A DNA stretch of 64,000 bases from Alphaproteobacteria bacterium (GTDB lineage: Bacteria; Pseudomonadota; Alphaproteobacteria; RF32; CAG-239): assembly GCA_017465405.1 (NCBI GenBank), contig JAFTWG010000013.1, positions 7,739-71,738 of the forward strand. The letters run 5' to 3'. Below are positions 59,072 through 59,960 of the stretch, in pieces. The translations under genes were made by a program, and so were the position numbers. Numbering within the stretch: position 1 is the stretch's first letter; the number at the start of each line of letters is the position of its first letter. The notes under the pieces were generated by a model that saw only the letters and a program-made list of their open reading frames with translations, ran no database searches and was not told the origin of the DNA.

Positions 59072-59251
59072 ATGTTTGAATATTTCAAAAGAAAATTTGT
59101 CAGATTACAAGGTAAAATAGAGATAGACACCTATCCTAAATATTACGAAGAAAACGACTGTATCATTAAGGAAGAAAAAGATGGTACTCGTTATATTGTT
59201 ACTTTAGATAAAGACTATAATGAACATATTGCGGGGGTTTACAATGGCTAA
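59072..59251 (+). CDS. 59-aa mini-protein (MFEYFKRKFVRLQGKIEIDTYPKYYEENDCIIKEEKDGTRYIVTLDKDYNEHIAGVYNG); candidate antitoxin partner
   Basis: AGGAG RBS 7 nt upstream. Overlaps the downstream P-loop kinase ATG by 8 nt (ATGGCTAA). Below the ORF-track cutoff. Confidence 0.4.
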   Translation: MFEYFKRKFVRLQGKIEIDTYPKYYEENDCIIKEEKDGTRYIVTLDKDYNEHIAGVYNG

Positions 59252-59960
59252 ATCAAAACCGTGGATGATTGTTATTGCCGGTCCTAACGGAGCGGGCAAA
59301 TCTACCTTTTATGAACAAGTTTTGAAAGATGATCCTTTTTTCAAAAAGGCAGAATTTATAAATTTGGATAATGAAGCGAAAGAATTAGCCGGTGAAGACG
59401 GAGACGTAAATGATTATATGTTTGAAGCCGGTCGAAATATTCGTAATCGTTTGCGTGAAAAATTGGATAAGAAACAAACTTTTATATATGAAACCACAGC
59501 TTCGGGAAGAACTCATTTGAAGCTAATTGAAGATGCAAAAGAATTAGGTTATAATGTAGCTTCAATTTTTATCGGGCTGTCTTCGGCTCATTTATCATAT
59601 TTGCGTGTGCAACAAAGAGTTAAAAACGGTGGACATGATGTTCCTACCGATGATATTGAACGCAGATTTCCCAACATTATGAAACGTTTCCCCGATATGT
59701 TGCGTTTAAGCGATGTATCTATGGCTTTTGATAATTCTAAAAAAACACCGTATGAACTTATTTTTATGATGGACGAAAGAAAATTGCTCGTATTTCATAC
59801 TTATCCGAAATGGATGAATACAGCATTAAAAGGGCGTAAAACTCGCAAAGATATGGTTCATATCACTAAAGAAGATTTTATAAGTATGAGTGACCAAAAA
59901 CGAGCTGATATGACCAAACGCATATTCAAAAGTCTTGAAGAAGTAGAAACAACTAAATAG
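59244..59960 (+). CDS. zeta-toxin-family P-loop kinase-like protein
   Basis: Walker A IAGPNGAGKSTF near the N-terminus. About 240 aa. Start at the ATG at 59244 (MAKSKPWMIVIAGPNGAGKST) preferred over the track start at 59220. Confidence 0.6.
   Translation: MAKSKPWMIVIAGPNGAGKSTFYEQVLKDDPFFKKAEFINLDNEAKELAGEDGDVNDYMFEAGRNIRNRLREKLDKKQTFIYETTASGRTHLKLIEDAKELGYNVASIFIGLSSAHLSYLRVQQRVKNGGHDVPTDDIERRFPNIMKRFPDMLRLSDVSMAFDNSKKTPYELIFMMDERKLLVFHTYPKWMNTALKGRKTRKDMVHITKEDFISMSDQKRADMTKRIFKSLEEVETTK

Follow-up and report, generated by a model that had tools for sequence, protein, structure and literature searches.

A 59-residue protein overlapping a zeta-like kinase gene in an uncultured alphaproteobacterium: a candidate minimal module of the ParD_like–Zeta_toxin type

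The window examined here is a stretch of 64,000 nucleotides (nt) from Alphaproteobacteria bacterium (GTDB lineage RF32; CAG-239; assembly GCA_017465405.1, contig JAFTWG010000013.1, positions 7,739 to 71,738 of the forward strand), in which a 59-codon open reading frame (ORF), hereafter the mini-ORF, overlaps the start of a gene for a P-loop kinase between gyrA and uvrA. A preliminary description, made from the sequence alone, had proposed the two genes as a type II toxin-antitoxin (TA) pair with a kinase of the zeta-toxin family, and had offered either an antitoxin of a new type or a kinase that is a non-toxic member of its family. Which kind of system, then, is this pair? The best reading is that it is a minimal form of a known TA family, being neither an entirely new antitoxin type nor a canonical epsilon/zeta system. 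In particular, we regard it as a derived module of the type that combines a ParD_like protein with a zeta-like kinase ('non-canonical PezAT', Rv0367c/Rv0366c-type), the antitoxin of which would have lost its DNA-binding domain, and we put the probability of this reading at roughly 55%.

A conserved pair of overlapping genes

The layout given in the preliminary description holds: a 59-codon ORF with an AGGAG ribosome-binding site overlaps by 8 nt the start of a kinase gene, for which about 240 codons had been stated and 238 are assigned here. The longest ORF of the kinase starts at 59220 and has 246 codons; the start was set at 59244 because homologs (P0001 and others) and the Shine-Dalgarno (SD)-like run at 59233-37 support that position, and all homologs start at the equivalent of this ATG. 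Relatives have GGAG or GAGG in place of the run, and the N-terminus of the kinase reads MAKSKPWMIVIAGPNGAGKST (MAKSKPW…). The start/stop overlap, ATGGCTAA, implies translational coupling of the mini-ORF and the kinase. The pair is present once in the window, and its GC content (33.9% vs 35.1% for the window) marks it as native.

Direct searches with the mini-ORF protein yielded homologs in ten clusters (53-100% identity), and a profile search of 1.84 billion representatives yielded 26 mini-ORF-type proteins (clusters at 50% identity) down to about 30% identity, all of them of 58-101 residues except for one weak match in a 991-residue protein. The conserved pattern is M.EY.KRK…(Y/F)P.YYE.NG.LI(K/R)E..DG.K..V.LD.N..E.I, with the core [FY]P.YYE..G.LI[KR]E..DG, which reads YPKYYEEN..IIKEEKDG in the window; two tyrosines, Y24 and Y25, are invariant. 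Relative to strains whose kinase is 94% identical, the mini-ORF shows 12-13 synonymous and 1-2 non-synonymous differences (ratio of non-synonymous to synonymous rates, dN/dS, 0.012-0.023), and the dN/dS of the kinase is 0.044-0.051. Mini-ORF and kinase are real proteins under strong purifying selection. The small size of the mini-ORF, its overlap with the kinase start and the absence of a family match in scans against Pfam, NCBIfam, PADLOC and PHROGs might suggest a chance ORF, or a leader peptide controlling expression of the kinase, rather than a functional protein; however, with conservation of the amino acid sequence over such distances, a dN/dS of 0.01-0.02, a predicted folded beta module and homology to domains of longer partner proteins (see below), this explanation is extremely improbable.

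At all inspected loci of the alphaproteobacterial clade, over a range of kinase identity from 99% to 38%, a partner of 57-61 residues lies directly upstream of the kinase, which supports the earlier pairing of the upstream ORF with the kinase and marks it as a real, co-inherited partner. The two genes overlap by 1-14 nt in relatives (e.g., ATGA or ATGAGTAG); locus L019 has an 18-nt gap instead. The inspected clade loci represent at least six chromosomal contexts (Table 1), and the presence of the partner at every one of these loci, in such varied contexts, indicates that the pair is inherited and relocated as a unit. A housekeeping kinase conserved at this position in all relatives, named in the preliminary description as an outcome that would speak against a TA pair, is not what was found: the gyrA–uvrA position is kept only among close relatives, and more distant ones carry the pair at other loci. 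Only uncultured gut and rumen Alphaproteobacteria have the variant, which looks vertically inherited in them.

Active site, fold and substrate of the kinase

The kinase exceeds the Pfam gathering scores of both AAA_33 (PF13671; 47.9 bits, gathering score 27, E 2e-12) and Zeta_toxin (PF06414; 41.1 bits, gathering score 22.3, E 1.7e-10), so that its earlier assignment to this family, made on the Walker A motif GPNGAGKST, is borne out; scans against NCBIfam and PADLOC yielded no family beyond the P-loop. A search of 5.8 billion proteins yielded 459 homologs. One set comprises about 95 clusters of 37-94% identity and 230-320 residues, from uncultured Alphaproteobacteria wherever the source is named; a far larger set comprises proteins of about 195 residues and about 30-40% identity from many phyla, annotated as 'zeta toxin family protein', 'AAA family ATPase' or 'predicted ABC-type ATPase'. 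With the single protein as query, the genome matches were three near-identical metagenome-assembled genomes (MAGs), including those from water-deer rectum and buffalo caecum. Approximately residues 1-195 form the core of the kinase. The basic C-terminal extension beyond it, about 43 residues long, is conserved in the alphaproteobacterial clade and lacking in the relatives of about 195 residues. A search for fusions among the longer homologs (277-320 residues) found C-terminal extensions only and no fusion of mini-ORF and kinase. One further homolog of 398 residues (P0096; L106 2501-3697) has an insertion of about 150 residues past the region of the catalytic Asp; it has no small ORF upstream and is followed by a 321-residue protein that looks like an alpha/beta-hydrolase.

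Invariant in an alignment of 29 homologs are GPNGAGK (G13-K19), T21, D42, E83, R121, R125, G129-G130-H131 and N164. The role of Asp42 as a catalytic-type Asp is suggested by analogy with published work (PMC6362051). Walker A, general-base Asp and Arg-lid together make up the layout of zeta-type and polynucleotide kinases (PNK), and by its predicted active site the window kinase is a catalytically intact zeta/PNK-like kinase.

The AlphaFold2 (AF2) model of the kinase has a predicted local distance difference test score (pLDDT) of 88. Among the folds of the Protein Data Bank (PDB), Foldseek ranks Clostridium thermocellum Pnkp first (kinase domain, 4gp7; E 2.9e-8, TM-target 0.70), with further matches to AvrRxo1 (4z8t/4z8q; E 3.4e-8 to 7e-8, TM-query 0.60-0.65), zeta (E 2e-7) and PezT (E 2.6e-7; overall range for zeta/PezT 2e-7 to 1e-6). 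Regarding PDB sequences, the phmmer and profile matches were mostly restricted to the P-loop; the family profile matched Pnkp1 (4xrp) with an E-value of 1.2e-5 and PezT with 0.026, in the N-terminal half only. Without the P-loop, the family profile matched no solved kinase in the PDB (no zeta, PezT or AvrRxo1 chain) and gave spurious matches only, and the substrate is therefore not readable from homology. The segment equivalent to the GTXR motif, by which zeta and PezT bind UDP-N-acetylglucosamine (UNAG, UDP-GlcNAc), reads ETTASGRT in the window kinase, the substrate of which is probably not UDP-GlcNAc.

The resemblance to Pnkp would fit a kinase acting on the 5'-OH ends of RNA or DNA, whether in repair or as a toxin directed at nucleic acids, with the small protein as an accessory subunit. 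The C. thermocellum Pnkp and Capnocytophaga Pnkp1 provide the best fold and the best full-length profile match, the latter better than that of PezT, and share the arrangement of P-loop, Asp and Arg; in addition, there is a weak match to a PHROG polynucleotide kinase, and the C-terminal tail of the window kinase is basic. However, the window kinase is a stand-alone enzyme paired with a small overlapping ORF, none of the inspected loci has a fused or adjacent phosphatase, ligase or Hen1, the zeta, PezT and AvrRxo1 folds match nearly as well, and the profile without the P-loop favours none of the solved kinases. We consider a polynucleotide kinase quite unlikely; as this explanation concerns the substrate, it is compatible with a TA pair.

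A canonical epsilon/zeta (pSM19035) or PezAT (Streptococcus pneumoniae) system, in which the kinase would phosphorylate UDP-N-acetylglucosamine and block MurA and the small protein would be epsilon-like, has in its favour the Zeta_toxin match above the Pfam threshold and the place of zeta and PezT among the best structural matches. The phosphotransferase fold of the zeta type and the upstream position of the antitoxin gene are shared, and epsilon likewise has no DNA-binding domain. However, sequence similarity to solved zeta and PezT is limited to the P-loop, the UNAG-binding motif is replaced, and Rv0366c, the closest validated relative by architecture, is also devoid of GTXR (PMC6362051). 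The window pair, furthermore, lacks an omega regulator, its kinase lacks the N-terminal helical region of zeta and PezT, and its partner is predicted to be a beta-meander instead of a three-helix bundle and has no similarity to epsilon or PezA. The canonical system is thus a very improbable explanation. AvrRxo1/Arc1 of Xanthomonas is comparable in the zeta-like kinase fold and in that AvrRxo1, an NAD 3'-kinase, acts on a substrate other than UNAG and is inhibited by a small cognate protein, whereas it differs in being a much larger secreted type III effector with an unrelated partner gene downstream and 15-16% identity.

The partner protein and the known toxin-antitoxin family

The mini-ORF protein, earlier called acidic, is mildly so overall (isoelectric point, pI, 5.3), whereas its first 16 residues are basic (pI 10.5) and the remainder is acidic (pI 4.4). 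The kinase has a pI of 9.25, and an acidic partner thus faces a basic kinase. AF2 predicts an N-terminal helix (residues 3-11, low confidence) and a four-stranded beta-meander (residues 23-57, pLDDT 73-82), and the model matched none of the PDB folds. Judged from this model, the protein is not a helical bundle of the epsilon/PezA type; together with the lack of a sequence match, this supports the earlier statement that the partner is unlike these antitoxins.

The nearest relatives of the window kinase outside its clade (31-40% identity, E 1e-23 to 1e-31) are kinases paired with a partner that carries the ParD_like domain (PF11903). P0116, a 197-residue kinase from Opitutaceae, is 35% identical to the window kinase (E 6e-23); the gene that abuts it upstream codes for a 127-residue protein whose residues 3-42 match PF11903, and a Phd–PIN pair adjoins. 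The mini-ORF protein itself has no PF11903 match in Pfam at E ≤ 1, and it aligns only to residues ~80-110 of the 127-residue partner. The C-terminal segment of PF11903-type partners, RP(F/Y)PHYE….PGLL(V/I)RI.EDGTRT.GRFVNR.F, resembles the mini-ORF core, and hhalign of mini-ORF residues 15-42 against this C-terminal module gave P 3.8e-4 with a probability of 36%, or P 6.9e-5 with a probability of 63% when enlarged profiles were used.

Profile hidden Markov models (HMMs) were compared with 2,706 background ORFs, taken from all six frames of 80 metagenomic loci with distant kinase homologs (31-40% identity). The seven best background matches of the mini-ORF HMM were all ORFs directly upstream of a kinase: those of L027 (8e-7) and L029 (0.037; 4e-7 after one iteration), and then five ParD_like-type partners. 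In the iterated search L027 and L029 were recruited strongly and the ParD_like partners did not fall below E 0.05; the link to ParD_like comes from hhalign and the reverse HMM. In the latter, built from the ParD_like C-terminal module, 12 mini-ORFs (best E 2e-4) outrank every background ORF, the first background match having an E-value of 0.37. Of the 67 loci with sufficient sequence upstream, 18 have module-bearing ORFs, and all 19 of these ORFs end 6-59 nt 5' of the kinase match. The module is also found behind other N-termini, namely in L027, L029 and a Cupriavidus plasmid protein ('…GRPIYVSD…VHPDGRRELMRLD'). These comparisons suggest, with moderate confidence, that the 59-residue protein is a stand-alone form of the kinase-associated C-terminal module of ParD_like-type partners; most relatives carry the module as the C-terminal part of a longer protein, fused to a preceding ribbon-helix-helix DNA-binding domain. 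Of the proposed new antitoxin type, the distinction from epsilon/PezA stands; complete novelty does not, given the apparent relationship to partners of homologous kinases.

Architecture, plasmid distribution and published toxicity and rescue experiments support the classification of the wider family, to which the kinase belongs, as a TA family. Rv0366c (197 residues) is bacteriostatic in Escherichia coli, Mycobacterium smegmatis and Mycobacterium tuberculosis, needs K15, D36 and R116 and has no GTXR motif; Rv0367c (129 residues, PF11903 at the N-terminus) rescues cells from it, and its toxin-binding region was not assigned (PMC6362051). Independent toxicity and rescue data for Rv0366c/Rv0367c come from TASmania, where ParD_like.Zeta_toxin was listed as a possible new TA family (PMC6504116). 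In Mycobacterium sp. MHSD3, overlapping genes code for an AAA_33 protein of 195 residues and a ParD_like protein of 119 residues; the pair is toxic in E. coli and the upstream gene neutralises (PMC5728571). The non-canonical PezAT family has been reported as essentially actinobacterial (PMC6362051, PMC10532202), and a 2023 review deems the PF11903 cluster, as its partner, to be restricted to Actinobacteria (PMC10532202).

The window pair resembles these pairs (Rv0367c/Rv0366c, MHSD3, TASmania A123/A49.T70) in that the small gene comes first and overlaps an AAA_33/Zeta_toxin kinase, that the kinase keeps the Lys of Walker A, an Asp of the catalytic type and a conserved Arg but has no GTXR, and that the partner contains the C-terminal module [FY]P.Y.E...G.L[IV][RK]...DG.[RK]. 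It differs in a partner of 59 instead of 119-129 residues, from which the PF11903 ribbon-helix-helix is missing, and in a kinase of 238 instead of ~195 residues with a conserved basic C-terminal extension. Homologs of the window kinase (28-38% identity) are found on 646 plasmid records, and some of them adjoin Doc or partition genes, which is consistent with a TA or addiction family. A search of plasmids with a ParD_like partner yielded no match; the plasmid-borne kinases have other partners, with the module in the case of Cupriavidus and without it in Clostridium and Enterococcus. On the Enterococcus plasmid NZ_CP033739.1 (L103 1311-2109), a kinase of the window family, which has 33% identity to the window kinase and no annotation in the gene table distributed by PLSDB, is located between the epsilon and zeta genes of an omega-epsilon-zeta locus and is preceded by a helical-looking 61-residue ORF unrelated to the mini-ORF.

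If the pair is a TA module, the acidic beta module, perhaps together with the basic N-terminal helix, would bind the basic kinase and keep it inactive. Loss or under-production of the mini-ORF protein would then allow the kinase to use ATP on its substrate and cause growth arrest, as for Rv0366c. Candidate substrates are a metabolite of the nucleotide type or the 5'-OH end of a nucleic acid, UDP-GlcNAc being an improbable one. Autoregulation of the operon by the antitoxin is improbable because the partner has no DNA-binding domain, as in epsilon, and an omega regulator is lacking as well; the ratio of antitoxin to toxin would be set by coupled translation through the start/stop overlap.

Several observations weigh against this reading. 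The homology between mini-ORF and ParD_like C-terminal module is moderate (probability 36-63%; HMM E 2e-4 to 0.03), and the link to Rv0366c/Rv0367c is by architecture only, i.e., by lengths, Pfam content and gene order as published. The tie to the validated pairs runs through proteins of the same architecture (P0116 and many metagenomic pairs), which are likened to Rv0366c by its description. Apart from the missing DNA-binding domain, no operator-like feature was found. The dN/dS of the mini-ORF is unusually low for an antitoxin and indicates stronger constraint than on the kinase, and the C-terminal extension of the kinase is lineage-specific. The pair is present in all 23 contigs read for the species, and DNA identity to the strains with a 94%-identical kinase is 91% for gyrA, 88.5% for the pair and 87% for uvrA; with divergence like that of gyrA and uvrA and with native GC, the pair looks resident rather than mobile in this lineage.

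Some of these observations are also what a domesticated kinase would lead one to expect, that is, a TA-derived but vertically inherited and non-toxic kinase of metabolism or signalling, with the 59-residue protein as its activator, specificity factor or phospho-acceptor. Very strong selection on both genes, stronger on the mini-ORF, native GC and divergence close to that of the flanking housekeeping genes, occurrence in every examined contig of the species and across a clade of 38-99% kinase identity, loss of an autoregulatory DNA-binding domain, gain of a conserved C-terminal extension by the kinase and the invariant Y24 and Y25 of the partner would all suit it, and the non-toxic family member envisaged in the preliminary description is possible for a pair that looks long-resident and highly constrained. 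However, the location of the pair differs between sublineages and the two genes always move together, a behaviour typical of selfish modules; the closest relatives of the pair outside the clade are of TA architecture and adjoin other TA genes; the kinase family is common on plasmids; and charge complementarity as well as the overlap with the small gene first are classic type II features. On balance we find domestication doubtful. The more specific proposal of a domesticated switch fixed across this gut alphaproteobacterial lineage, in which the 59-residue beta-meander controls, or is phosphorylated by, a non-UNAG zeta-like kinase, is unlikely; if true, an antitoxin would have been reduced to nothing but the domain that binds the toxin and recruited into the physiology of the host, and the 59-residue protein would represent, in its smallest stand-alone form, a kinase-binding module that is shared with ParD_like antitoxins and had not been recognised before.

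If, on the other hand, the derived ParD_like-type TA module is the right reading, a beta module of about 35 residues in ParD_like-type antitoxins, [FY]P.Y.E…G.L[IV][KR]…DG, would recognise zeta-like/AAA_33 kinases; it would be the candidate toxin-binding region of Rv0367c and could occur as a free-standing protein of 59 residues. With 297 residues in total and no DNA-binding domain, the pair offers a compact system for the study of inhibition and substrate in this branch of zeta-like kinases. Related pairs were seen here outside Actinobacteria, namely in Opitutaceae, in Planctomycetia, in gut Alphaproteobacteria and in many metagenomes from the environment, which extends the known range of the family. 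All of this is a refinement of a known family and not a new biological principle.

Features of the locus and neighbouring genes

The coordinates of the features and the contexts of the pair are summarized in Table 1.

Table 1. Features of the pair and its surroundings in the window, and contexts of the pair at other loci
Feature	Position	Strand	Remark
gyrA	56133-58964	+	5' flank of the pair
gyrA intrinsic terminator hairpin	58983-59016	+	15-bp stem and T-run; from sequence
TTGTCA, -35-like hexamer	59037-59042	+	TTGACA in the 99%-identical L007
AGGAG, ribosome-binding site of mini-ORF	59061-59065	+	6 nt 5' of ATG
Mini-ORF, 59 residues	59072-59251	+	ATG 59072, TAA 59249-59251
GGGGG, SD-like G-rich run within mini-ORF	59233-59237	+	6 nt 5' of kinase ATG
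Start/stop overlap, ATGGCTAA	59244-59251	+	8 nt; kinase ATG inside final mini-ORF codons
Zeta-like P-loop kinase gene, 238 residues	59244-59960	+	ATG 59244, TAG 59958-60
Walker A GPNGAGKST, residues 13-21, K19	59280-59306	+	invariant in 29 homologs
Asp42	59367-59369	+	invariant; positional analogue of catalytic Asp (zeta/PezT Asp67/Asp66, Rv0366c Asp36)
RVQQRVKNGGH (R121, R125, G129-G130-H131), lid/phosphate-binding motif	59604-59636	+	invariant
Junction of presence/absence polymorphism, AAATAGGTGTTG	59955-59966	+	279-residue gene here in many same-species strains
51-residue ORF (MKKIDVDAVKTVEDKLDFYRHSFSEGMISKETYESLKKHYSTILKQLKGVR)	60030-60185	+	gyrA–uvrA lineage only
Bidirectional terminator, 12-bp stem	60204-60235		T-runs on both strands; common to + strand small genes and uvrA
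uvrA	60242-63055	-	3' flank of the pair, convergent
Context gyrA–uvrA	L001-L009, L107-L116		
Context 3' of rsmA, beside xerC-like gene	L010-L012		
Context between xseA and dnaG	L013		
Two contexts near DUF308, bPH_2, sigma factor	L015, L019		
Further contexts, one each	L104; L105		

Terminators had been stated for both sides of the pair. The one after gyrA was found as described and isolates the pair from gyrA transcription, whereas the downstream one lies 3' of a conserved 51-residue ORF and not directly after the kinase. The likely promoter ascribed to the mini-ORF could not be substantiated: promoter-like sites are not enriched (5 found vs 6.0 expected in shuffled sequence), the TTGTCA hexamer at 59037, alone worth noting, is accompanied by no convincing -10 element, so that a promoter is not established, and an alignment of the upstream regions across loci revealed no common operator or promoter.

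The gap between gyrA and uvrA is, on a small scale, a hotspot of accessory genes. Among strains with identical mini-ORFs, some have and others lack a 279-residue gene that begins 8 nt downstream of the kinase stop codon; it is missing from the window and from at least four other assemblies. Its product has weak similarity to Transglut_core and a Cys/His/Asp-like motif, and in L007 an imperfect 12-nt direct repeat (AAATAGGTGTTG / AAATCGGTATTG) borders the segment with this gene (6724-7576) on either side. As a required third component of the system the gene was rejected, because its presence varies among strains of the species and the window does not have it. The 51-residue ORF is probably on the same transcript as the pair. 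It is 55-63% identical where the kinase is 94% identical, i.e., it evolves faster than the pair; no family match was found for it, and its 'EG(M/L)ISKE.YE' motif is reminiscent of SHOCT domains. It was likewise rejected as a component of the system, having been found only in the gyrA–uvrA lineage. A 429-residue ATPgrasp_ST gene (PF14397, 1.5e-37) lies between gyrA and the mini-ORF in L001 (4435-5724), L002 and L006, and not in the window (58964-59072). The 279-residue, ATPgrasp_ST and 51-residue genes are not part of the core because none of them accompanies the pair elsewhere.

Other neighbours were observed at more distant loci. Directly 5' of the pair on the human-gut contig L019 (2004-3772) are genes for a 452-residue protein with a weak AHH/HNH nuclease match and a 137-residue protein that by eye looks to be an immunity protein of the SUKH/SMI1 type; these two may be a polymorphic-toxin pair. 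In a MAG with a 38%-identical kinase (L104 1192-2085), the pair is followed by a 297-residue protein with faint PP-binding (acyl-carrier-like) matches. In the window itself, a 560-residue ORF upstream of gyrA (53789-55471, - strand) has a C-terminal half that by eye resembles a MobA-type nucleotidyltransferase (LAAG.S.R).

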